Of a stretch of 64,000 nucleotides of DNA, positions 1 to 61,058 are shown piece after piece. Every line of letters starts with the position of its first letter. Position 1 is the stretch's first letter. This DNA is from Sphaerodactylus townsendi (Eukaryota): positions 126,046,001 to 126,110,000 of the forward strand of contig NC_059426.1 of the NCBI RefSeq assembly GCF_021028975.2, written 5' to 3'. Made by a program: the position numbers and the translations under genes. The notes beneath the pieces are model-generated. The model was not told the DNA's origin. It did not search any database and worked only from the letters and a program-made list of their open reading frames with translations.

Positions 1-166
1 CTGGTTCAGCCAATAGCAATTTTGTAATTTTAACCACCACGAAGGTAATAGGGACACTATCAAAACATTGGGAGGCTGCAACCTAAGCATCCCACTACAA
101 TGCAGTCCAAGCATTCTGAATGGAGGCTCCTTGAGAACACACTGGAAATACTCCCTAGTCTGATTC

Positions 167-400
167 TGGTGGGTTTTCCGGGCTGTGTGGCAGTGGTCTA
201 GTGGATCTTGTTCCTAACGTTTTGCCTGCATCTGTGGCTGGCTTCTTCAGAGGTGTATCACAGAGGGAAGTCTGTTACACACTGTGTCCAGAGAGAAGGA
301 AATGTTTGGGGTATATATTGTCCATGTCCCAGGGTGGGGAACCAATCAGTAAGTGTTTCGGTAGAACTTGTTATGCAAAGATGTGGTTGATAGTATTGTA
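167..400 (-). mobile_element. Penelope-like element (PLE) terminal/pLTR fragment with degenerate hammerhead motif
   Basis: Same repeat as 9765, 22087, 26039, 33654 and 37483; minus strand reads CCT-CTGAAGA-AGCC...GGC-AAAAC-GTT-AGG. Confidence 0.65.
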
Positions 401-667
401 TTGCAGGTCTCCCTAGTCTCTTCTCAAACACCTCCTGCTGCAATGAGGTGGAGAAAATCCAAAACTGGTTCTTTGCTTTTGGGATGAGGTACTTCACTGA
501 AGAAGCAAATAGTCACCGAAAAACTTACTGTCAGACACCATGGTGCCCATGGGTGCCCTACTGAGGATCACTGGGATCATGTTTAATGCACTCAGCTAAT
601 CTCCAAGGAACACTCAGGTATAAGAATTACAAATGCCCACACAGAGAGAATTTGACTAGCTGCTCAC

Positions 668-5700: not shown

Positions 5701-5745
5701 GTTTCTACCTATATTGCTTCTGTTGGGAAGTTGATTCCCCTAATG

Positions 5746-5875
5746 CAGTGGTGGTGAACCTTTGGCACTCCAGATGTTATGGACTACAATTCCCATCAGC
5801 CCCTTCCAGCATTGGCAGGGGCTGATGGGAATTGTAGTCCTTAACATCTGGAGTGCCAAAGGTTCGCCACCACGG
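5746..5875. mobile_element. Palindromic non-autonomous hAT MITE inserted next to the CR1 fragment
   Basis: Whole element is an inverted repeat; 8-bp TSD CCCTAATG at 5738-5745 and 5876-5883. Confidence 0.9.
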
Positions 5876-5909
5876 CCCTAATGTGTTCTATGCCCTCTTG
5901 ATTCTATGC

Positions 5910-9198: not shown

Positions 9199-9764
9199 CT
9201 GCAAGAAGAATCACCAGCATAAGCTTTCTGTTCTTTCATCAAATTTTAATATTGTCTTATTCAGGGTGGTATACATGCATCTCACATTGGTATACATGCA
9301 GACAAACCTTTCCTACTTTGTCTTCACAACAAACCCTGTGAGAGAGACATGTGATAGTCCCAAGGTCATTCAATGAGCTTCATGGCCAAGTAGGGATTTA
9401 AACTGGCATTTCTCTAAGCCTAGACTAATCATTAAACCACAGTGGTATACATTAGAGAAGGAGATATGAAACAGGCCTTTAGATCCCTTTGATTGCTTAC
9501 TGCCTACCAGCAGTAAACACCACCCACCACTCTAGGCAGTAAGCAATCAAAAGGATCAAAAGCCCAGGCTACTGCAATGCAGATACCCTCACTAATTGAT
9601 TATGCTAACTTCATGGTTACTCACATGCTAAATGGGTGGATCCCACCCAACACATGCACATCAAGTTTGCTAATTGCACCCTTTACACTTGTTAATAGGC
9701 AAATGGTTCTTTCTCCCACCCTGGATATTCCACAGGTATATATACACTTGCTTTACTACCATCA

Positions 9765-9862
9765 GATCCTCTAAAGATGCCAGCCACAGATGCAGGCAAA
9801 ATGTCAGGAGAAAATGCTACTAGAACACGGCCATACAGCCTGGAAACCACATAACACCCCAG
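9765..9862 (+). mobile_element. Penelope-like pLTR fragment (degenerate hammerhead)
   Basis: CCTCTAAAGATGCCAGCCACAGATGCAGGCAAAATGTCAGGAG matches the family. Confidence 0.65.
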
Positions 9863-10409
9863 TCTAAAAGCTCATCAGTTTTCTAAAACCAGATAACTTG
9901 ATGGCTGCAGCTTCAAATGAAGACTTGCAGGCATTAATTCACCATCAAACACTGGAGGCACCAGTTTTCATATCACTATACCTCACAATCACCTTTTCTA
10001 AATTGATCCAAACATTCAGCTAGAATCATGCTGAGAATCAAGTAATGGACATAGACACTGACCTAAAGAGATATGAAGTTTAAGTAGTTATTATATGGAA
10101 AACTAATTTTCTTGAGACTCAAGATGTTTTGAGGTTCAGAAGCACAGAAACTAATCCACTATGAAATGAGAATTGCTACTATAGCAGTAGAAGCACCGCA
10201 GATGAGATTCTGAAAGCTATCTGAACCTTCTCCTTGTACTGTATGTTAGGAATACTGTCACCAGTAGACAATTTTATACACAGCTGGTTAATGGTCAGAA
10301 CTATTGGTCTTAGTCAGATTCTAAACGGACACAGAATGCTGTAGCAGGTACATAGATATATACATACAGGATATTGAATGAAGCCAAGTATGTTGGTATT
10401 AGAACTCAC

Positions 10410-21885: not shown

Positions 21886-22030
21886 CAGTGATGGCGAACC
21901 TTTGGCACTCCAGATGTTATGGACTACAATTCCCATCAGCCCCTGCCAGCATGGCCAATTGGCCTGCTGGCAGGGGCTGATGGGAATTGTAGTCCATAAC
22001 ATCTGGAGTGCCGAAGGTTTGCCACCACGG
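21886..22030. mobile_element. Palindromic hAT MITE (same family as 5746)
   Basis: TIR CAGTGATGGCGAACC; 8-bp TSD CCCTACAT on both sides. Confidence 0.92.
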
Positions 22031-22086
22031 CCCTACATGTTTACTTATGGAGAGTGAAATGGCCCTCAGTGACAACAACCTATCCA

Positions 22087-22360
22087 TCTGTTGGTTGCTG
22101 TGGGTTTTCCGGGCTGTGAGGCTGTGGTCTGGTAGATCTTGTTCCTAACATTTCGCCTTCATCTGTCACTAGCATCTTCAGAGGTGTATCACAGAGAAGT
22201 CTGTTACACACTCAGTGGGAAGTCTGTTACATACACAGTGTGTAACAGACTTCTCTCTGTGATACACCTCTGAAGATGCCAGCCACAGAAAAGTTAGGAA
22301 CAAGATGGGAACCCACAACAACCAGTTGAGTCCGGCCGTGAAAGCCTTCCACAATACATT
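22087..22360. mobile_element. Penelope-like inverted pLTR pair
   Basis: Inverted arms; family tail GGCCGTGAAAGCCTTCCACAATACA. Confidence 0.7.
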
Positions 22361-24708: not shown

Positions 24709-26038
24709 GTGAGTTGTTCTGTTTCACAATAAGAATGTTCTGTTTCACAATATTCTAGGAGTTCTTTCTTGAGAGTAGAAAAGCTTAAAGAATCAACATT
24801 ACCAAGCAGCAGAATAATGATACAGAAAGTAATAATTGGCACAAGAAAGATTTATTTTCAAATTAATTTCAAAGTTTTAAAATCTTTTTGCTTTTGTGTT
24901 TCACTCATTTCCCTTAGGTAAAACATCTTTGGTTTCAAAAAATACGTATCTTTCATTGGAAAAAAAATACTATTTCCTCTTGGAAATCCAAAGGAGAGGA
25001 CATTTTTCTTTAACTTGTCTCTCTGTAGTGGGAATGGCTGCTGGAAAAAGGATCAGCCAAAATTCTTTTGGCCACATGCACACCCATACTTTGGATCTGA
25101 GTCATTGATCAAACCACACATCTGTTGTCAACAGTTCAATTAATTAAATGTAATTTAGCCGATACCTTAGTTATTCACCATAGATCAGCCCTGCGTGCTG
25201 CCTATGGAGATGCATATGGTCTTTATCAGTGAGCCAGATGTGGACTCAGAAGTACTTCAAACCATTTTTATAATATGTCTCATTTTTCAGTGTGCAAAGT
25301 CTTGCTACATATCTTATGTAATGAACAGTGCAATCAAAAAAAGCTTACTTGGCAGTAAGTCCTATTTCAGTGGAACTTCTTCCACTGTTTATGGTTTAGG
25401 ATCCATCCTTAATGTCTCCATGGACTGGCTTTCCTTTCTCCACCACAGATTTGGATGGTCCAATCCAGATGGGGGCACCCAAATCCACTTGTGGAGGCAG
25501 CATGAAGCTTTGCTGACATATTTGCCGCCTCTGCCAGCAAAAGGGACACCCATTCCAGTAGAGGGAACAAAGGCGCCAGTGGCTAACCATCCTGCAGCTC
25601 CACAGCGGCGAAGCCTGGAAGTCTGGGCTGCCATGGAGCTGCACCAGCGTGGGGGAAGGGTGCATGCCAGGGCATTTCAGGGGGTGGAACCAACATTAGT
25701 TGGCTTTCATCCCAGGTTTGCAGCTAGTTGCGGTGCAGCCCAGGACCTGGACTTAGGCTACCCTTTTGGGCTGTATAAGTCCATTAAACCCTTTGGTGGG
25801 CTGTCCAGCTGTGGGAGAAGTTGGCTTTTTTTTCTTCCTGCGCTGCTGGAAAGCCCTCTGGAATTGGCAGGGCAATGCAGTCCTTGGCTGCCGGAGGGGC
25901 TCTGCTTTGGGCTGAAGGACTAAGATTCTTAGGGGCAGAAAAAATGTAAGCTGGTGTCCCCTTGTTGTTAAATATGCATAGGGTTTGAATGCCATCTAGC
26001 AGACTTTTCTTGTCAAAGGCTGTCATAGCCGGATACAA

Positions 26039-26282
26039 CTGGTTGTGTTGGGTTTTGTGGGCTGTGTGGCCATGGTCTGGTAGATCTTGTACCTAACGTT
26101 TCGCCTGCATCTGTGGCTGGCATCTTCAGAGGTATATCACACAGGGAAGTCTGTTACACACTGGACACAGACTTCCCTCTGTGATACACCTCTGAAGATG
26201 CCAGCCACAGATGCAGGCAAAACGTTAGGAACAAGATCTACCAGACCACGGCCACACAGCCCGGAAAACCCACAACAGCCAG
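26039..26282. mobile_element. Penelope-like inverted pLTR pair (about 115-bp arms)
   Basis: Near-perfect inverted repeat of the family found at six loci in this window. Confidence 0.75.
26090..26134 (-). ncRNA. Putative minimal type-I hammerhead ribozyme in PLE repeat
   Basis: UACCU-CUGAAGA-U-GCC(loop)GGC-GAAA-CG-UU-AGGUA: complete core, 5-bp helix I, palindromic ACGU helix III. Confidence 0.6.
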
Positions 26283-26349
26283 ACTTTTCTTGCTGGAGTT
26301 TAGTGTTTCCCATGTATTATTACTTTTTATCTTATTGCTACTTCAACAG

Positions 26350-26437
26350 GCAGCATATGATAAAGTAAGAAAAGCCAAGAAACAGGCAGCAGAAAGAACT
26401 GAGAAGCTTGATGAAAGGAGGAAAAAAGTCAAGCTTG
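26350..26437 (+). CDS. DNAJC17: DNAJC17 exon 4 ([29 protein letters not shown])
   Basis: tcaacag acceptor, G|GTATGT donor. Confidence 0.96.
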
Positions 26438-26692
26438 GTATGTAATAAGAGTATATAAAAAGTAAAGGCCCAGTTGCTGGGATCCTTATTTGTTAATATT
26501 TATAATTTTTCATAAATTGAGTTTTTTCATAAACTTTTCATAATTTTTTTCAAAAGAGCTAAATGCCGATTACAGTGGTGTGGTGGCTTCTGTGAAAAGC
26601 TCCCTGCAATTAGCAAAGATTGGCACTATTTGAAATCGTTTCCAGTCAAATGCTGTTTGGATTTTGCTGAACTTGTGCAATTTTTCTTCCAG

Positions 26693-26775
26693 ACCTTGAA
26701 GCCCGGGAAAGACAAGCCCAGGCTGAGGTCAGCAAGGAGGAGGAGATCCGGATAACCAGGACATTAGAAGAAGAG
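26693..26775 (+). CDS. DNAJC17: DNAJC17 exon 5 (DLEARERQAQAEVSKEEEIRITRTLEEE)
   Basis: tcttccag acceptor, GAG|GTAAAA donor. Confidence 0.95.
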
Positions 26776-27078
26776 GTAAAACTGGCTTGCCAAGCAATAT
26801 AATAGCTTGATAAAACATGGGTATGGAAATAGATCTATTTATACAGCCCAGATGGTGAGCAGAAAGCCAATGATAAATAAGATATATGGACTAGAAGGTG
26901 CTGGGGCCTTGGGCTTAAGGCCAGCATAAGGGGGTTTAGTTGTTGATGAGACAAAATGCTGAGTGACTTTTCACAGCTATTTATCTTATATGCTATAAAT
27001 AGTCTTCATTGAAAAAGGATATAAAGTCAACTTTTGGGCAACATAGCCACCATTTTTGCGTTCTGCCTCTCTTCCCAG

Positions 27079-28149: not shown

Positions 28150-28412
28150 GTCTTGTTCCATGTTTCTCTTTCATCTTTGTTTTGCCTAATAGTTTGTATG
28201 ATCAAGCAAAAACATTTGGTGTAAATTTACGCAGAAGGTTATGTGGACCCACCTTGGTCATTATATGTTTCCTCATTCTTTGTTAGTGAGGAACGGCATG
28301 ATTAGGAATTGTGATTTCCTATAACCAGCATTCCTGCAGAAAGGTTCCTAAATGGCTTCTGGTAGAGTGACTTAAGGGAAGTGGAATGGTACAGTATAGC
28401 CAGATCTTGCCA

Positions 28413-28680
28413 NNNNNNNNNNNNNNNNNNNNNNNNNNNNNNNNNNNNNNNNNNNNNNNNNNNNNNNNNNNNNNNNNNNNNNNNNNNNNNNNNNNNNNNN
28501 NNNNNNNNNNNNNNNNNNNNNNNNNNNNNNNNNNNNNNNNNNNNNNNNNNNNNNNNNNNNNNNNNNNNNNNNNNNNNNNNNNNNNNNNNNNNNNNNNNNN
28601 NNNNNNNNNNNNNNNNNNNNNNNNNNNNNNNNNNNNNNNNNNNNNNNNNNNNNNNNNNNNNNNNNNNNNNNNNNNNNNNN
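28413..28680. other. Assembly gap (N run); a minus-strand L2-like tail abuts its right edge
   Basis: N characters. Confidence 0.99.
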
Positions 28681-33653: not shown

Positions 33654-33841
33654 ATGAGGTGCTGTGTGGTTTCCGGGCTGTATGGCCGTGTTCTAGCAGC
33701 ATTCTCTCTTGACGTTTCACAGATGCCAGTCACAGATGCAGGCGAAATGTCAGGAGAGAAAGCTGCTAGAACCCGGCCATACAGCCCGGAAACCATACAG
33801 CACCTCAGTGATTCCAGCCGTGAAAGCCTTCGACAATACAT
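33654..33841. mobile_element. Penelope-like inverted pLTR pair with central deletion
   Basis: Inverted arms plus GCCGTGAAAGCCTTCGACAATACA tail. Confidence 0.7.
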
Positions 33842-34899
33842 TAAACTAATACATGGTTTGATTACAGTGGAGAACATTGCTTAAAATAAATTTTCAGGTC
33901 CTGGCGACTGCACAAAAATCCTAACCAATCAAAAGATATCTCATGAACCATACATGGACTGTGGGCTCTGAATTCAAGATCCTTTTCCTATGACCAAAAA
34001 TAGTACAGCCGATAGAAAATTATATAGATATGCCAGACTTTTCTTCCATAGTCTCTTTAAGCTACGTTACTTTTTTTACCTCTTTAAATTTTAGTATTCA
34101 CCTCAAATGTCCACAATATTTACAAAGCACAAACTTTCTAGCCCTTCTCCCCAGATTTCTACTTGCTGTGAGATTGCTTCTGTTTTATCTTTTTCATGTG
34201 CTTCTTAGTTTTCTGGTTAATGTCTGTCTACCTAACAAGTACACATTTGTGTGCACTGTAGTCATGATGTTTCTAGAAGGTAAAATTCAGTGGCATTATT
34301 GATTGGCAAGCTTCTAAAATGTTGATATTCCACCTTTCAGCTATCCAGTCTTCAGTGTGGTTTTCAATTAATAAAGCCATTAACAAAATAATTGCAAAAA
34401 AAATAAATTTACAAAGATGCAGTAACATGATTGTGTCAGAAGAGTGAGATAAGAACCACTTTCTACAAAGATGAAGCAAATGAATCCAAATGAAGCAAAT
34501 GCTTTGTGGCTTATTGCATCTGACAGCTGGCTAAGATTGTTGTCTTTTTCCTGTGGTAAAGTAGGAGTCATTTGGTATGCTAGTTAAGAGGATGTGTTAC
34601 TTACTATATAGTTAGTTCCTTGACAGGAAGGCTTAACATGTCCAAGAAGTTGCTCAGCCAAACTATTAATCTAAGAAAATAAGACCTGACAACTCTTGTC
34701 TCTGATTTGTTTACGTTTCTTGTTTCAAGAAGCTGAAGCAAGGGCAAGGCTTCCAGGTTAATTGGGAACTGTTGGCTTGCTTTGGCTTTAAATGACAACT
34801 GTCATTATCTCAGCTATGCAAGAATGGGTGGTGTTCAGGATTCAATTCAAGCAGGCTTTCTACTGAGGTTGATCTGTGAGCAAAGATATGTGGCCAGGA

Positions 34900-35796: not shown

Positions 35797-36330
35797 TTAA
35801 TTCAATAATAAGTTCTGGCTTTTGAGTGTCTGCAGAATGTCTTCAAGGAGCGAGGGACCCAAGTCTAATTTGAAAGAAAAGAAAGGGTCGGATGGATCAG
35901 TCGTACCATGCCACGAGATGGTTTCAGAGTGGCGCCAGTCCACATGGTGGTTCTTGCAGAAAAGATCTGACTGTGTTTGAGTGGACTTGTGAGAGTGACG
36001 GGAAGTGCTTGGAAAGGAATTTTCAGCGGAGGACGAATCCGTGTGGTCTATTATATTGGGGCAGCTGGCGCTGTCCAGGTACAGCCGTGGTGGCTTGGGA
36101 GGCGGCTGTGTCTTGGTGGCTAGGTTTTCCTCACTCTGACATGAGAGGTAGTTTGACTTTCCTTTCAGGTCTCTTAGGAGCTCCCTTTTGTTGCATTGTT
36201 CATTGGAGTCTAGCGTACGGCTGTTGTGGTTCAAGATCGTTACTTGACTGCCCAGTTTCTTATGCCTCCGGAGTGAGAGACGCTTGAAGAAGCCTGAGGA
36301 CCTGAGGGATCCTCTCTGCCAAGTGTCCAT
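35797..36330 (-). CDS. C15orf62: C15orf62 orthologue, single coding exon, 177 aa, nested antisense in DNAJC17 intron 10
   Basis: GCCATGG Kozak; MDTWQRGSLRSSGFFKRLSL, PPKPPRLY..SCPNI and SDPFFSFKLDLGPSLLEDIL match recalled human protein; acceptor ctctgttccag at 36449; syntenic position. Confidence 0.92.
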   Translation of the reverse strand: MDTWQRGSLRSSGFFKRLSLRRHKKLGSQVTILNHNSRTLDSNEQCNKRELLRDLKGKSNYLSCQSEENLATKTQPPPKPPRLYLDSASCPNIIDHTDSSSAENSFPSTSRHSHKSTQTQSDLFCKNHHVDWRHSETISWHGTTDPSDPFFSFKLDLGPSLLEDILQTLKSQNLLLN

Positions 36331-36580
36331 GGCGAGGAAATAGTAAGAGACTGTTGACTGGCAATTCCAGAGTGAAGGAGACCTCAAACCTTGGTCTCAA
36401 CTGACATGAGGCTGTAGAAGTCAGGAGCCTCTCCTTTGTCAACAATTCCTGGAACAGAGAGGGAAAAAAGAGCAACAACAGACTGGCTTTCCCAAAAGGG
36501 TATTCTTGGTCATGGTGTCAACAGTATTCAAGGAGCCACTAGGTAAGAAATGCACTAGTATGTGTTTGAAGGTAATCTTC

Positions 36581-36873
36581 CCGTGGTGACGAACCTTTGG
36601 CACTCCAGATGTTATGGACTACAATTCCCATCAGCCCCTGCCAATTGGCCATGCTGGCAGGAGCTGATGGGAATTGTAGTCCATAACATCTAGAGCAGGG
36701 GTAGGGAACCTGCGGCTCTCCAGATGTTCAGGAACTACAATTCCCATCAGCCCCTACCAGCATGGCCAATTGGCCATGCTGACAAAGGCTGATGGGAATT
36801 GTAGTTCCTGAACATCTGGAGAGCCGCAGGTTCCCTACCCCTGATCTAGAGTGCCAAAGGTTCGCCACCACTA
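36581..36873. mobile_element. Palindromic hAT MITE interrupted by a second hAT MITE (36696-36843)
   Basis: Inner TIRs CAGGGGTAGGGAACC / GGTTCCCTACCCCTG; 8-bp TSD ATCTAGAG. Confidence 0.93.
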
Positions 36874-36911
36874 GGCCCTATGAAACATGGCTGGAATAGT
36901 AAACTATCTTG

Positions 36912-37052: not shown

Positions 37053-37482
37053 TGGGTTACCATACTGCCAAGAAAGCACTGCATGCCTGCAGCACTCCCT
37101 TCCAAATACAGAATGACAAATACAAACTGGGCTTCAGCTTTTAGGTATTTTAAAGTCAGTGATCGTTTTTAGAACATCAATAACAATTTTTGAAAGCATT
37201 TGAATTTAGGAAGGTCATGGTTCTAGCATCCCAATCTGTTGAGATGTAGCTGAATGATTTTTTGCTGTGCACAGAATGGGTTATGCTTATTTGTTTTGAA
37301 CTATTTCTATGTTGCTTTTGTACCCTCTTCTAGGGTTGCCAAGGCAGCAAGCAATTAAAAATGTTTTAAACCAGCTTTAAACACACACACACAATTAAAC
37401 AAAACACATAAACATGTAGAAGGCTCAGTGATGAAGGTTTCGTGCTTGACCTTTACACCTGCAGGAGCATCATTTAAGGGAA

Positions 37483-37570
37483 TGTATTGTCGAAGGCTTT
37501 CACGGCCGGAATCACTTGGGCGCTGTGTGGTTTCCACAGGCCATACAGCCCGGAAACCACACAGCGCCCA
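37483..37570 (-). mobile_element. Penelope-like terminal remnant with short inversion
   Basis: TGTATTGTCGAAGGCTTTCACGGCCGGAATC is the reverse complement of the family tail. Confidence 0.65.
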
Positions 37571-45149: not shown

Positions 45150-47939
45150 CCTCCTGTGGCAGCATATTCCAAACACCAATCACACGTGAAGAAGTGTTTC
45201 CTTTTATTAGTCCTAATTCTTCCCCCCAGCATTTTCAATGAATGCCCCCCTGGTTCTAGTATTGTGAGAAAGAGAGAAAAATTTCTCTCTGTCAACATTT
45301 TCTACCCCATGCATAATTTTATAGACTTCAATCATATCCCCCCTCAGACGTCTCCTCTCCAAAGAGTCCCAAACGCTGCAGCCTTTCCTCATAAGGAAGG
45401 TGCTCCAGTCCCTCAATCATCCTCGTTGCCCTTCTCTGCACTTTTTCTATCTCTTCAATATCCTTTTTTTTGAGGATGTGGTGACCAGAACTGAACACAG
45501 TACTCCAAGTGTTGGTGTACTCAAGGCTTTATATAAGGGCATGACAATCTTTGCAGTTTTATTATCAATTCCTTTCCTGATTATCCCCAGCATAGAGTTT
45601 GCCTTTTTCACAGCTGCCATGCATTGAGTTGACATTCCCATGGAACTATCAACTAAGACGCCCAAATCCCTTTCCTGGTCTGTGACTGATAGCACTGACC
45701 CCTGCAGCGTGTATGTGAAGTTTGGATTTTTTGTCCCTATGTGCATCATTTTGCATTTTGCTACATTGAACTGCATTTGCCATTTCTTAGCCCACTCACC
45801 TAATTTATCAAGGTCCGCTTGGACCTCCTCGCAATCCTTTGTGGTTCTCACCACCCTACATAATTTGGTATCATCTGCAAACTTGGCCACCACGCTACCC
45901 ACCCCTACTTCCAGGTCATTTATGAATAGGTTAAAGAGCACTGGTCCCAATACGGATCCTTGGGGGACACCACTCCCCACATCTCTCCATTGTGAGAATT
46001 TCCCATTTACACCCACTCTTTGCTTCCTGTTTCTCAACCAGTTTTTAATCCATAGGAGGACTTCCCCTCTTATTCCTTCATTGCTGAGTTTTCTCAATAG
46101 TCTCTGGTGAGGAACTTTGTCAAAAGCCTTTTGGAAATCCAAGTAGACAATGTCCACTGGTTCCCCCTTATCCACATGCCTATTTACATCCTCAAAGAAC
46201 TCTAGTAAGTTTGTAAGACAGGATTTGCCTCTGCAAAAGCCATGCTGACTCTTTCTCAGCAGGTTTTGCTTTTCTACATGTTTTATAATTTTATCTTTAA
46301 TGACAGATTCTACTAATTTACCAGGAACAGATGTCAAACTGACTGGCTCTGTAATTTCAGGTCCTCCCTAGATCCTTTCTTAAAGATTGGTGTGACATTG
46401 GCCATCTTCCAGTCTTCAGGGATGGAGCCTGATTTCAAGGATAAGTTGCATATTAAAGTGAGAAGATCAGCAATTTCATGCTTGAGCTCTTTAAGAACTC
46501 TTGGGTGAATGCAATCTGGGCCAGGGGATTTGGTAGCATTTAGTTTATCAATGGCTGCCAGAACTTCTTCCTTTTCTACCACTATCTTCGTTATTTCCTC
46601 GGATTCGCCTCCTAAGAATCTTGTTTCAGGTGCAGGAATTTTCCCTCACCTCCTCTTGGGTGAAGACAGATGCAAAGAATTCATTCAGCTTTTCTGCAAT
46701 CTCCCTGTCATCTTTTAGCACACCCTTTGTTCCTTTGTCATCTAACGGGCCTACCGCTTCCCTTGCTGGCTTCCTGCTTTTGATGTACTTGAAGAACTGT
46801 TTGTTGCTGGTTTTGATGTTTCACAGCCATCGTTCCCTCATAATCCTTTTTTGCCTCCCTTACAGCTAACTTGCTTCTCTTTTGCCACCATTTGTGTTCT
46901 CTCTGGTATTCTTTATCAGTTAAGTTGGACTTCCATTTTCTAAAAGACATCTTTTTTTCCCTAATAATTTCCTCAACGTCCCTTGTTAACCATGGTGGCT
47001 TTCTTTGACTGGGCTTGCCTTTTCCTAACCTGTGGAACACATTCCAGTTGAGCTTTTAAGACTGTGTGTTTTAAATAACCTCCAAGCATCTTGGACATTT
47101 TTGACTCTCTTGATTTTCCCTTTCAGCTTCCTGCACTATCCCCCTCATCTTTGAGAAATTTCCCTTTCTGAAGGCTTAATGTAACTACATTAGTAGTTGT
47201 CACTTGTTCGCATGCAGAGATACTGCATCTGACAGCATTGTGGTCGCTGTTCCCTATCGGCTCAACAACACTGACTTCCCGCACCAGGTCCTGGGTCCCA
47301 CATAGAATTAGATCTAGGATCACATCTCCCCTGGTTGGTTCTACAACCATCTACTCTAAGCCACAGTCATTTAGCATATCCAGGAATGTTCTGTCCTTAC
47401 TATGACCTGAACATGCATTTTTCCAGTTTATATGGGGATAGTTAAAATCGCCCATCAATACCCGCGACATTTTTGCTTTTGTTGGCCTCTCTAATTTCTT
47501 TTTCCATCCTCAGAATCCTCTTGTGCTTTGGTCAGGGGGTCGATAATATATTCCTAATGTTAAACTATGCTTCACCCTGGTATTGATATCCACAGTGCTT
47601 CTGTAGAGGATCAGCTCCCCCTGCATTGTCTATTTTATGTGACACTATGCTCTCTTTGATGTAGAGGGCCACCCCACCCCCAATACGCCCTGTCCTATCC
47701 TTCCTGTAGAGCCTGTAACCTGGGATAACAGCATCCCACTGGTTCTCCTCATTCCACCATGTCTCTGTGATGCCCACTATATCAATGTCCTCCTTCAAAA
47801 CTCTGTACTCCAGCTCCCCCATTTTAGGTCGAATGCTTCTACTATTAGCATAGAGACACTTGTATACTCTGTCTCTGTCCCTAACCTGGGATTTATGTGT
47901 TTTGCCCTCTAGCCTTCTGTAGACACTATCACTTATCAC
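45150..47939 (-). pseudogene. CR1 ORF2 (APE endonuclease + reverse transcriptase), frameshifted into several pieces
   Basis: 'CLYANSRS..VGITETWW', 'SDHNAV', 'YLDFQKAFDKV', 'GVPQGSVLGP', 'KFADDTKL'. Confidence 0.92.
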
Positions 47940-48063
47940 ATTGCTATGTTACTCACTTGTATGTGGTTGATTTAAAAAAAAACCTCCTTCTCTGTCTGCA
48001 TCCCCATGGACTCTGTATTCCGAACCGAAGTCACCTCAGCTCCTGTCGGCTTTCCCCCAGGAA

Positions 48064-48966
48064 TCAGTTTAAAAGCTGTTCTGCCACCTTTTTAATGTTG
48101 AGCGCCAGCAGCCTGGTTCCTCTTTGGTTAAGATGAAGCCCGCCCCTTTTGTACAGGCCTGCCTTATCCCAAAAGGTTCCCCAGTTCCTGACAAATCTGA
48201 AACCCTCTGCCTTGCACCACCTTCTCATCCACGCATTGAGACCCTGTATCTCCGCTTGCCTAGCTCGCCCTGCGCGTGGAACAGGTAGCATTTCAGAGAA
48301 TGCCACCTTGCGGGTCCTGGATTTTAACCTTTTTCCTAGCAGCCTAAATTTAGCTTCCAGAACCTCCCGGCTACAATTCCCAATGTCATTGGTACCAATG
48401 TGGACCACAACTGCTGACTCCACCCCCGAACTGTCTAACAGCCTAGCTAGGCGAAGCGTGACCTCCCCAACCTTCGCACCGGGCAGGCAAGTCACCATGC
48501 GGTCATCACGCCTGTCACAAACCCAACTCTCTATATTCCTGATGATCGAATCACCCACTACAAGGAGCCCCCCACCTCCCCGAGGGGTATCCTCAGTGCG
48601 AGAGGATAGCTGATCACCAGTTAAGAAAGGGATCCCATCTAAGGGAGCATCTTCCCCCACCTCAGACTGGAACCCTCTGTCACCCAGACTCTCATTCTCC
48701 ATGACATCTGAAGAGATGTCACCTTGGGAGTGGGACCCGGCTGCTAGGTCCCTGAAAGCCTTGTTTGTTGCCCTCTCTGCCTCTCTCAGCTTCTCCAGGT
48801 CTGCCACCTTGGCTTCAAGAGAACGGACACGTTCCTTGAGTGCCAGGAGCTCATTGCAGCGAGGGCACACCCACGACTTCTGGCCTAGTGGCAGATAGTC
48901 ATACATGTGACACTCAGTGCAAAACACTGGCAAGCCCCCATCCCCCTGCTGGCTTCCTGCCTTCAT
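48064..48966 (-). CDS. CR1 ORF1, 300 aa: CxxC..CxxC finger, coiled coil, SGNH/GDSL esterase-like domain
   Basis: 'CTECH..CPRC', 'LKERVRSLEAKVADL', 'VVGDSII', 'HIGTND', 'GGLHLN'. Confidence 0.88.
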   Translation of the reverse strand: MKAGSQQGDGGLPVFCTECHMYDYLPLGQKSWVCPRCNELLALKERVRSLEAKVADLEKLREAERATNKAFRDLAAGSHSQGDISSDVMENESLGDRGFQSEVGEDAPLDGIPFLTGDQLSSRTEDTPRGGGGLLVVGDSIIRNIESWVCDRRDDRMVTCLPGAKVGEVTLRLARLLDSSGVESAVVVHIGTNDIGNCSREVLEAKFRLLGKRLKSRTRKVAFSEMLPVPRAGRARQAEIQGLNAWMRRWCKAEGFRFVRNWGTFWDKAGLYKRGGLHLNQRGTRLLALNIKKVAEQLLN

Positions 48967-49225
48967 ATCTGCTTTTGTTTAGATATTTAGATATTAAACT
49001 TTTAGTCAGTGCCCCTTGGAGCTATCTGTACCTACTACCCCTCAAGAAATGTCCTTATTAATTAATTAATTTATTTATTTTAAAAAAGAAAAAAGAAAGA
49101 AATTGCGGATGAGAAGGTGGTGCAAGGCAGAGGGTTTCAGATTTGTCAGGAACTGGGGAACCTTTTGGGATAAGGCAGGCCTGTACAAAAGGGACGGGCT
49201 TCATCTTAACCAAAGAAATTGCGCG

Positions 49226-49845
49226 CAGAGTCACTCTGTTCTTCCTGGCCCAGATGCCTTGTCCACTGCTGCTCCTTTCTGCTGGTTCCAGAGACTGAAC
49301 TAAAGACTGAATGACTCACCTCAGGAGCCCCACCTTTAGCAGCCCAGGACAAAGAGTAACCTCTGTTAACCCCTGTTAAGCCCCACCTCCAGCAGTCTCA
49401 GCTCCTAGTAGCCTTAAGGAGAAAAAGAGATAACCCCTGCAAACCCCTGTTAAAAAATACACTGTTTTAAAAGATGTGGCTTTGAGAAAAGCCCTCCAAA
49501 ATGAACACCAGAGTCACTCTGTTCTTCCTGGCCCAGATGCCTTGTCCACTGCTGCTCCTTTCTGCTGGTTCCAGAGACTGAACTAAAGACTGAATGACTC
49601 ACCTCAGGAGCCCCACCTTTAGCAGCCCAGGACAAAGAGTAACCTCTGTTAACCCCTGTTAAGCCCCACCTCCAGCAGTCTCAGCTCCTAGTAGCCTTAA
49701 GGAGAAAAAGAGATAACCCCTGCAAACCCCTGTTAAAAATACACTGTTTTAAAAGATGTGGCTTTGAGAAAAGCCCTCCAAAATGAACACCAGAGTCACT
49801 CTGTTCTTCCTGGCCCAGATGCCTTGTCCACTGCTGCTCCTTTCT
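49226..49845. repeat. Tandem repeat of about 283 bp, 2.2 near-identical copies, at the CR1 5' end
   Basis: Units start at 49226, 49509 and 49791 (CAGAGTCACTCTGTTC). Confidence 0.93.
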
Positions 49846-56766: not shown

Positions 56767-57345
56767 CAGGGGTAGGGAACCTTTAACACTCAAAGAGCCA
56801 TTTGGACCCATTTTCCACGGGAAAAGAAAACACTTGGAGCCGCAAATAATTTTTGACATTTAAAATAAAGATAACACTGTATATATTGGGTTTTTTTACC
56901 TTTTACTCCACTCATTCTGAGAAGCGCATGGATGCACCCGCCCTGCTGCCTGCAGGGCAGGCAAGGATGGAGCCAGCGGCTCGGCCGCGCCATCTGCCGG
57001 GAAAGCGCCTGCCCCGCTCAAACGGGGTGGGCGAGAGGGGAAGCCTGCGGCACGGCCCAGCCGTGCACGGGCAATTGGTGCGCCCGCCCTGCTGCCTGCA
57101 GGGCGGGCAAGGATGAAGCCGGCGGCTCGGCCTCGCCATCTGCCGGGAAAGAACCCGCCCCGCTCCAATGGGACGGGCGAGAGGGGAAGCCCATGGCGCA
57201 GCCCAGCTGTCCGCGGGCAGTTGGTGTGCCCGCCCTGCTGCCTGCAGGGCAGGCAAGGATGAAGCTGGCGGCTCGGCTCGTGGAGCCGCAGTGCAAGGGC
57301 AGAAGAGCCGCATGCGGCTCTCGAGCCGCAGGTTCCCTACCCCTG
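56767..57345. mobile_element. Non-autonomous hAT element with internal GC-rich tandem repeat of about 147 bp
   Basis: TIRs CAGGGGTAGGGAACCT; 8-bp TSD TTCTAGTT. Confidence 0.92.
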
Positions 57346-58603: not shown

Positions 58604-61058
58604 CTGCAAAGAGAAACTTACAATTTTATTCCTGAAGAGAAAAATCATTCTCTTTCATTCTACCTGCTTAGAGTTTATTGATGGTACGATACATACTACA
58701 CTTAAGATAAAATGTTTTATTGACAACAGATGATGTGTTTGACTTGGAGAAGGTTCACAAAAGCTCCCAGTATAGTGAGATATATTCAATGAAAAAGCAT
58801 TTTGGCAGCATCCTCCGTGTTTTATCTACATGGAAGAGCGGAAAATGTGGTCATTCCTCCAAAAAACAGGAGGAAGGCAGGTCTCTGGAATGACTCAGGA
58901 GGACCCAGTGCTTGAGAAAAGCTCCCTCTGCAGGCTAAACAGAAGACAACAAAGATCATTCAAAAATATCAATTATTACTGTATAATTTAATAAGCTTTT
59001 TTCAACACCAGTGAGGACATATGTGGAAATTAATTTTAAAAAGTTAAACACTTAAATGATCTAAATTTCTGTACAAAGCTAGCTTAGCCAGGCTTACGAA
59101 ACAAGCCTTCCAGTGCTATCCTGAACAAAATTATACCTTTCTAAACCCACCAACTTCAATGGACTTAAAATGGAACAGGCTTAGGATTGCATAGATAGTT
59201 GCCACGAAGATCAGTAACACACAACAGGTTTCCTTAGCTCACCAACAGTATCAAAGAAACAATTACTGGTACCAACTTCATTCCTATATACAAGAAAACT
59301 CTGGTTGCTGAGGGGTGAGTTATAAACCATTTAGATGGTTTCAAAAACCCTTTGCCTAGCAACTATAGGGTCTGTTTTGCAATCTGAAAATATTATTCAA
59401 ACACATGAGCTTTCATAAACTGTGAGGAAGGAAAGCACTTGGCCCAAGTATCAAAACACCACAGTGCTTAGCAAAAAGAAAGTCAGCAGGGCAACTGTCT
59501 CATGAGCATCAACAATGTGCCAAGGCAAAAGAGAAGTGCTCAGTGTCCTGATGAAATTCCAGGAAGAGGAGTGTTTCTTCGTCCGTGAAATTTCTAAACA
59601 AGCAAGGAAGAAGCTGCTGAAGCTGTTACATCTTCAAGAAAATGGAAACTCAAGTCCACATGAGCAGGCCGGTGGGCGGAGGATTTTGCATGAGTTTTTG
59701 TCTTCCAGGGAGCAGATCTGCCACAACAACCTGCATTTGCGAGTCTAGCAACAAAAACGGAAAGACTGTATTTGTCAAGATGAGGGGTTTTTTTTTATTG
59801 AATCCAAGAGGATGTTTTTTAAATTGTATCCCTTAGCGTCTTTAGGATCCACTAAGAACAGACAGGCTATACAAACAGGCTTTGAAAATAAACACATAAA
59901 TAAACTACATTTACTTCATTCTGTTGCAAAAGGGCAACAAATGTTATCAATTGGGTCCATAGATTCTGCAAATGCAAACAAATTGCTTCATCTGAAATCC
60001 TGCCTGTAGAAGGACAGCTTAACGTTGTCATCTGGGTATGTGCGCTTGTCTATTTTTTTTATTATTTAATGCTCCTAACATTTCTTCAGGATGGGTTTTG
60101 TTGTTTTTTTCCCTGTAAACATGTCATAACATTTTGGGGGGAAAGTTACAAATTTAAGCATTATTCATATGGAAACTGGTACAAATGCAGTTGGTCTATT
60201 AATGATTAAACCTTTGATGTTTAAACAACTAAAATGTCTCAAGAGATAGCCCTTTTTAAAACAGGGTGCCATCCAGTATATGTCATGCAGAGGTGTAAGG
60301 CACAAAAATAAAATCTAATCAGCCTTACCAAACATGTGAATTACACAATAGTATTCATCTACAAGTTCAGAAAGGTGCAAGAATTTTAAGCGTGATTTTG
60401 CAAATCCATTCCCCATGTCACTACCTTGTGCCTACTGGTCAACATTACTGGCATTTTCTTCTTGATGATCTTTCTCTTCTGTTCCTTCTCTTGGCTTCAC
60501 TCATCGGTTCTCAATACCTCCATGCTTTCTTTCCCAACTTTTTGTTTATATCATCCCTCTTGGGTAGCTTGGTTCTCTGGTCTGTCTGGCTCATGACTCT
60601 CTCATGGAAAGTGAATTAGATACAAAGGCCATTTTTCTACCCTAGTAACAGGGCAATACATTGGTACAATTCCTGCCTCTGTCTAAAAGGGAAGGGGTTG
60701 CTATTGTGTTTTTTTTCAATTGTCCTTCAGCTATCATGTGTTGCAGAAACCAGTGAATAGGAACATAATTATATCATTTGAAGCAAATATTAAAAGAACT
60801 GTTAGCTTTCTTACTCTTGGAGCACCACTTTCAAACAGTTGGCTAGACCCTATCACCCTGCAACTTAACTGAAGAGGCTTCCTGTGCTGGAAAATGCTCT
60901 TTGTACTGGAGGGAAGATCAACATTTAGCTGAGCAGCATAAGAGGATCAGTCTGTGGCGGGGGGGGGGGGGTAGGGGGGTGGCAGCTTGGCTAGGCACTG
61001 TTGCAGCTGATTTGAAAACCCAATAAAATCATACACACACTAGGTTATAAGTTCAGTC

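Follow-up and report, generated by a model that had tools for sequence, protein, structure and literature searches.

A core-intact minimal hammerhead motif in a DNAJC17 intron of Sphaerodactylus townsendi, most likely a silent arm of a short head-to-head Penelope-like insertion

We analyze a minimal hammerhead motif on the minus strand of a 64,000-nt stretch of Sphaerodactylus townsendi DNA (the window), and we find that it is very probably the pLTR/ORF-junction hammerhead of a squamate Poseidon-type Penelope-like element (PLE). It occupies one of the two arms of a short insertion that is built head-to-head and flanked by a target-site duplication. Since this copy lies opposite the host strand and forms half of a long inverted repeat, we regard it as most likely a neutral, silent relic that does not cleave, rather than a working ribozyme.

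The motif was put forward by an earlier interpretation made from the letters alone (the sequence-only reading), whose letters, coordinates and strand proved exact on re-reading. The minus strand of 26090-26134 contains a CUGAAGA core, an extra U, a G10.1-C11.1 pair, GAAA, a loop-less ACGU helix III and a GUU triplet, and each of the core features previously listed (CUGANGA, extra U, GAAA, loop-less palindromic ACGU and GUU) is present. The helices called for some revision. The proposed 5-bp helix I holds for this copy but not for the family, in which helix I has 3 bp (CCU/AGG): the two outer pairs are mostly unpaired in four other arms, and position 26091 carries a different letter in 95-97% of the summed contig depth of four public runs, so the fourth pair is private to this copy. 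Similarly, the first 3 bp of helix II stand, but the predicted fold suggests a longer helix (3 bp, an A-A mismatch, 2 bp and a 7-nt loop). A relaxed descriptor recovers the motif and a second arm at 22144-22184 as its two matches in the window; a chance motif is ruled out, since 300 dinucleotide-shuffled versions of the window contain no match at all, and a stricter scan of the window returns 26090-26134 as its sole match. The bare 45-mer folds with helices I and II, with an energy that is ordinary relative to shuffled sequences (z -0.79; 43 of 200 shuffles equally good), so the case for a hammerhead rests on the core letters. No hammerhead match was obtained at this locus with Rfam at E<=5, and covariation across the helices, computed on five arms only, yields a score that 462 of 500 shuffles also reach.

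By sequence comparison, the motif is identified as the pLTR/ORF-start junction of a squamate Poseidon-type PLE, a real minimal hammerhead (min-HHR) of known kind and a new member of its family. The assignment to the minimal type-I hammerheads of Penelope-type elements, in which helix III is palindromic, and to a dispersed repeat was right, and ribozymes of this kind are reported to need dimers (Cervera and de la Pena 2014, PMC4209133). The motif agrees with the min-HHR description in that paper in its short helix I, in its C3-U4-G5-A6-N7-G8-A9 and G12-A13-A14-A15.1 core with an NUH site, in the single extra base between positions 9 and 10.1 followed by G10.1-C11.1 (G-C in all five arms), and in the lack of loop 3 with a palindromic 15.2-16.2 (ACGU), the published consensus including C-G-U-U examples. 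It is otherwise alike in kind, although the survey rows of PMC4209133 include no lizards among the matches listed, the reptiles being turtle and snakes. Most motifs in that survey are solo, with pairs lying 100-700 bp apart on opposite strands.

A close homologue is found in PAc (Poseidon_Ac) of Anolis carolinensis (Frangieh et al. 2024, PMC11167929). Compared by eye and without gaps, the published PAc RNA template matches the arm that holds 26090-26134 at 35 of 41 nt over the hammerhead and at 82 of 114 nt from the AUG, and the 33.7-kb arm at 97 of 120 nt, which makes the homology colinear across the pLTR/ORF junction of a characterised PLE. Length and layout are the same: in both elements A9, the extra U and G10.1 make up the AUG, which stands where stem II begins, the predicted cut falls 26 nt 3' of that AUG, and the tail lies between two reverse transcription (RT) start sites. 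Unlike PAc, our motif has a GUU instead of a GUC cut triplet and an A-A mismatch in helix II, the family has diverged (72% over 114 nt), and the 26-kb copy lacks an ORF and sits in an inverted pair. PLE insertions with head-to-head pLTRs and a tail at one end are known (Arkhipova et al. 2013, PMC3846280; Craig et al. 2021, PMC8557442), and the inserts described here resemble them in their inverted 5'-truncated copy, their palindromic junctions and the 8-10-bp scale of their duplications; unlike them, they consist of the two arms alone (88-268 bp).

Two further assignments were rejected. Non-LTR retrozymes (bioRxiv 10.64898/2026.07.22.740005) are likewise described as non-coding, type I hammerhead elements derived from PLE pLTRs, but a head-to-tail tandem array is found at no copy in the window, all copies being solo or head-to-head. 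A conserved, domesticated intronic hammerhead of the HH9 type is contradicted by the absence of an Rfam match at the locus, the absence of a helix III loop and the antisense orientation; the HH9 match at 60773-60847 (20.4 bits against a gathering threshold of 52, E 2.1) was treated as chance.

The sequence-only reading also suggested a search for a linked PLE ORF encoding RT and GIY-YIG domains, which returned no Pfam match in the 38 frames upstream of the 9.7-kb copy, and the duplication-bounded inserts are too small to hold such an ORF. Initial protein searches with the N-terminal peptides of the element gave no match, and a full-length element of this family was not retrieved. An exhaustive peptide search gave two matches, both lacking RT and GIY-YIG domains. 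One is a repeat protein that is unrelated (P0001); the other is a gene model from a gecko, 'caskin-1-like' (P0002, XP_048355645.1), which ends in the Penelope N-terminal peptide (71% over 38 aa) and whose annotation likely runs into a copy of the element. Two scans of metagenome DNA yielded 0 and 0 loci; a relaxed hammerhead-like pattern matches five viral-contig loci (L001-L005).

Table 1. Coordinates of the insert at 26 kb, of the adjacent host exon and of the other family copies in the window
Feature	Position	Strand	Remarks
Target-site duplication, left copy	26000..26012		13 bp; exact 13-mer repeated at 26280-26292
Left arm	26013..26163	-	pLTR 3' part, hammerhead, first 37 element-ORF codons, tail
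Penelope tail	26013..26041	-	About +83 to +111 from AUG; left arm only; matches the distal of the PAc RT start regions (+111 to +118; PMC11167929)
Core-intact minimal hammerhead	26090..26134	-	Family form 26092-26132; G12 at 26102; predicted cut 26095/26094
AUG (A9, extra U, G10.1)	26121..26123	-	Opens MPATDAGETLG...; element ORF start by PAc homology
Head-to-head junction	26161..26163		3 nt common to both arms
Right arm	26161..26279	+	Tail-less (ends +82); 10-nt deletion near centre; hammerhead 26189-26229, G12A at 26219
Target-site duplication, right copy	26280..26292
Host exon	26350..26437	+	57 nt beyond duplication; DNAJC17 by position; exon not named by Pfam
Family A, single arm	162..408	-	Carries G12A; longer pLTR with CCAAT- and TATA-like boxes; flanked by an 11-bp duplication
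Family B copy, closer to PAc	9660..9863	+	G5A and G12A; 5' boundary approximate; duplication looked for and not found
Family A head-to-head insert	22093..22360		Minus arm core-intact (22144-22184); plus-arm hammerhead partly deleted; no duplication found
Family B head-to-head insert	33657..33842		13-bp duplication; 5' half of core missing
Family B head-to-head insert	37481..37568		10-bp duplication; truncated below hammerhead

The 26-kb insert spans 267 bp (Table 1) and contains two inverted 116-bp stretches (26039-26154 and 26167-26282) that differ at 10 positions, so that the intact arm adjoins a sister arm, absent from the sequence-only reading, that carries a natural G12A change. Both arms extend through the predicted cut site, implying that the template RNA was uncleaved, as reported in vitro in PMC11167929. 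The insert has no TATA box, its arms starting 26-33 nt below the position of the TATA-like box in the 162-408 copy. The window holds six inserts of two subfamilies, A and B. Four of the six are head-to-head, and the palindromic inserts are reduced to their two arms. All four show the PLE trait of a tail at one end (here about 29-37 nt) with an inverted 5'-truncated copy, and target-site duplications of 10-13 bp flank four of the six inserts; flanking duplications of the 9.7-kb and 22-kb copies were looked for and not found. The five other copies had been described as degenerate or lacking the motif, which does not hold for the minus-strand arm 22144-22184: it keeps all 11 scored core positions, with a U-G pair in helix III.

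Other repeats share the window. A separate hairpin family has three copies (5745-5876, 21888-22035 and 36581-36883), one with a related element nested in it and one about 60 bp from the 22-kb Penelope insert, and it is the source of sub-threshold mir-5408 matches in Rfam. A LINE on the minus strand (45447-48978), presumably CR1-like, encodes a GDSL-esterase ORF1, an endonuclease and an RT. Arms of 110 bp with 99% complementarity occupy 48121-48230 and 49107-49216. Tandem duplications occur at 49226-49845 (283 bp, 2.2 copies, 99%) and 56933-57277 (146 bp, 2.4 copies, GC-rich), and the relaxed descriptor finds no hammerhead in either.

Being short, non-coding, abundant and built of long inverted arms, with centres at nearly the same place in the 22-kb and 26-kb inserts, the 267-bp palindrome could be read as a MITE or other non-autonomous unit copied whole, with the hammerhead as a passenger. 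We consider this very unlikely, and a MITE proper was rejected: where such a unit requires symmetric terminal inverted repeats, a fixed duplication length and a uniform interior, the arms are asymmetric, with a tail on one of them, duplication length varies between 10 and 13 bp, centres differ among the four inserts, single-arm copies exist, and the sequence is colinear with a known PLE as published in PMC11167929.

The ends of the inserts point instead to how a PLE may integrate. All four head-to-head inserts pair one tailed with one tail-less arm. The tailed arms end at +111 or +120 and the tail-less ones at +82 or +83, which fits the two sites bounding the tail at which PAc reverse transcription is reported to start, mainly at +111 to +118 (PMC11167929). 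At the four tail-less, duplication-bounded ends (162, 26279, 33657 and 37568) the first 2-3 nt of the target are in every case the next letters of the element, while the tailed ends show 3, 0 and 0 matching letters; PAc priming in vitro is described as non-homologous in the same paper. At the other end of the arms, the putative 5' end of the RNA would follow from the usual spacing between TATA box and transcription start. A distance of 26-33 nt below the TATA-like box holds for the centres of the 22-kb and 26-kb inserts; those of the 33-kb and 37-kb inserts are deeper truncations off this spacing, for a fit in two of the four. In public runs, position 26167 gathers loose contig ends (two runs, with 176 and 166 contigs). 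The joints with the best support place other centres 0-8 nt above helix I, a position that in family B lies 23-31 nt below its TATA-like box. The Drosophila Penelope promoter is reported to be TATA-less (PMC2377424). Finally, the arms of the 26-kb insert overlap by 3 nt and could have paired as cDNA 3' ends, and PAc is reported to cut and extend both target strands, with a dimer predicted (PMC11167929).

One-sided tails, the 3-nt overlap and the two-strand cutting and predicted dimer of PAc together suggest priming from two nicks followed by the joining of run-off cDNAs. We tentatively propose, as a possible though less than even reading, that the palindromes are a fossil record of Poseidon integration in which both nicks prime on uncleaved RNA. 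A dimeric element protein would nick both target strands 10-13 nt apart, and each 3' end would prime reverse transcription. On one strand, priming at the distal start (+111 to +120) would leave the tail; on the other it would occur at the proximal start (+82 to +85), where 2-3 nt of the target would pair with the RNA and help. Both cDNAs would then run off the 5' end of the RNA, about 25-33 nt below the TATA box of the pLTR, and the two cDNAs would join by 3' microhomology. An alternative, self-priming on an antisense template, has been put forward for PLEs (PMC3846280). Our literature search, in which subscription journals were thinly covered, found, among the papers listed, none that states a two-strand priming model for PLEs.

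The family is very abundant. When contigs from four public runs (organisms A-D, four of 13 sources listed) were placed on 25400-27000, 28,462-62,939 contigs per run were recovered, concentrated on the element, with a summed depth (which is not copy number) of 0.4-14 million on element bins and of at most about 3,900 on the flanks beyond 25993 and 26318. Loose ends accumulate at two positions, those at 26282 carrying the tail (391-708 contigs per run) and those at 26281 a mixture of AT-rich letters (257-510 contigs per run), reproducing the two end types of the inserts in the window. The left junction of the 26-kb insert is bridged by 45 nt in run X2 and by 44 nt in run X5 (with 9 differences in 541 in the X5 flank), so the insertion is common to organisms A and C. 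Contigs of run X6 reach 27 and 29 nt into the element, below the 31-nt bridging limit, and no contig of run X4 crosses a junction among the matches listed; an empty site is absent from the 15 joints listed of 846.

G12, the general base of the hammerhead (PMC6155905), lies in a CpG, as does C15.2-G16.2, and G12 has been lost through its CpG in three of the six arms that retain the site without deletion. CpG sites are mutated in 7 of 16 cases across four family-A arms, and core loss in the other arms is mostly CpG decay. The sequence-only reading had tied its case to a core better conserved than its flanks. Outside CpGs, the core of the four family-A arms (leaving out the deleted 22-kb plus arm and the family-B arms) shows 0 changes in 40 positions, compared with 17 in 328 elsewhere; the difference is not significant (p=0.24), and selection on the core was thus not detected, although with four arms the test has low power and its direction is that expected under selection. 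One fully intact arm in six is the expectation at the measured rate of CpG decay.

The further claim of a dispersed family of self-cleaving RNAs in introns is supported as regards the dispersed repeat but not as regards self-cleavage, since the intact arm is antisense, TATA-less and predicted to pair with its sister. The whole insert has a predicted fold of -222 kcal/mol (z -27), in which forcing helices I and II costs 76 kcal/mol, as opposed to 1.2 in the bare 45-mer, and the hammerhead fold has a predicted probability of 0.14 for the bare motif, 0.006 for the 153-nt arm and nil for the complete insert. Moreover, the antisense arm is transcribed first on either strand. Cofolding gives -22.4 kcal/mol for the ACGU-swapped dimer versus 2 x -9.5 kcal/mol, a homodimer gain of about 3 kcal/mol. 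Min-HHR relatives are reported to cleave weakly as dimers (PMC4209133), and the PAc hammerhead is reported not to have cleaved without the protein of its element (PMC11167929). On these folding models, cleavage of the 26-kb copy is predicted to be absent.

An active or host-selected ribozyme, cutting antisense or read-through RNA such as that from a nested minus-strand gene near 36 kb, would account for the intactness of every core position, for the private change that lengthens helix I to 5 bp and for an insertion common to at least one other organism (left junction, run X5). It is nevertheless very unlikely, because in any minus-strand read-through the sister arm precedes the intact arm and pairs with it, the insert lacks a TATA box, the nearest same-strand partner is at least 3.9 kb away, the predicted homodimer gain is small, the PAc ribozyme is reported to have required protein (PMC11167929), and about 30% of arms are expected to retain both CpGs at the measured decay rate. 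In the favoured reading of a silent relic, the parent element would have carried a weak, PAc-like ribozyme cutting 26 nt after the AUG, with helix III supplied by a second copy through the ACGU palindrome, or with the protein of the element required, or both. The 26-kb copy would have been inserted by target-primed reverse transcription from uncleaved RNA, its intact arm would have kept both CpGs by chance, and read-through RNA would make the antisense arm first, burying the motif in the 116-bp duplex.

The host gene, DNAJC17, lies on the plus strand with exons from about 17.6 kb to 41.5 kb. Its identification draws on one exon matching the solved chain 2d9o (E 7e-9) and on another corresponding to a DnaJ domain (E 1e-7); the exon at 26350-26437 was tentatively assigned from its position together with a motif ascribed to this gene. 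An assembly gap at about 28410-28680 lies within DNAJC17 (268 N in the window), and a single-exon ORF with a Cdc42-effector (BORG_CEP) domain, presumably C15orf62-like, is nested antisense in one of its introns (35797-36396, minus strand). Given the strand of DNAJC17, the intact left arm runs opposite to the pre-mRNA, which has the G12A arm in sense orientation. Both family-A palindromes (22093-22360 and 26013-26279) end 60-100 nt upstream of a DNAJC17 exon, with the core-intact arm antisense and the sense arm broken, a pattern that could reflect selection against sense-strand ribozymes. That the insert matters to its host as intronic double-stranded RNA, as an editing substrate or splice modifier, is very unlikely: about 70 nt separate the end of the 116-bp hairpin from a 3' splice site, and about 100 nt that of the 22-kb palindrome from an exon, but the arms have drifted (10 differences) with no compensatory change seen, and in so common a family such positions could arise by chance.

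The novelty of the ribozyme itself is small, its kind and a close homologue tested in vitro having been published already. The locus does serve as a caution: where a vertebrate intron contains a perfect hammerhead core, the core can be a transposon relic that is antisense and buried in a hairpin. In this family, because the catalytic G12 lies in a CpG, methylation decay in the host is also enough to yield the classic G12A knock-out. The anatomy of the insert could matter more. The origin of PLE head-to-head repeats with a one-sided tail is stated to be unresolved in the PLE papers cited here. If true, two-strand priming would account for the head-to-head arrangement, for tails on one side and for the great number of short copies that hold only the hammerhead, and the antisense self-priming proposed earlier would not be needed; thousands of short inserts and the in vitro system available for PAc make it testable.
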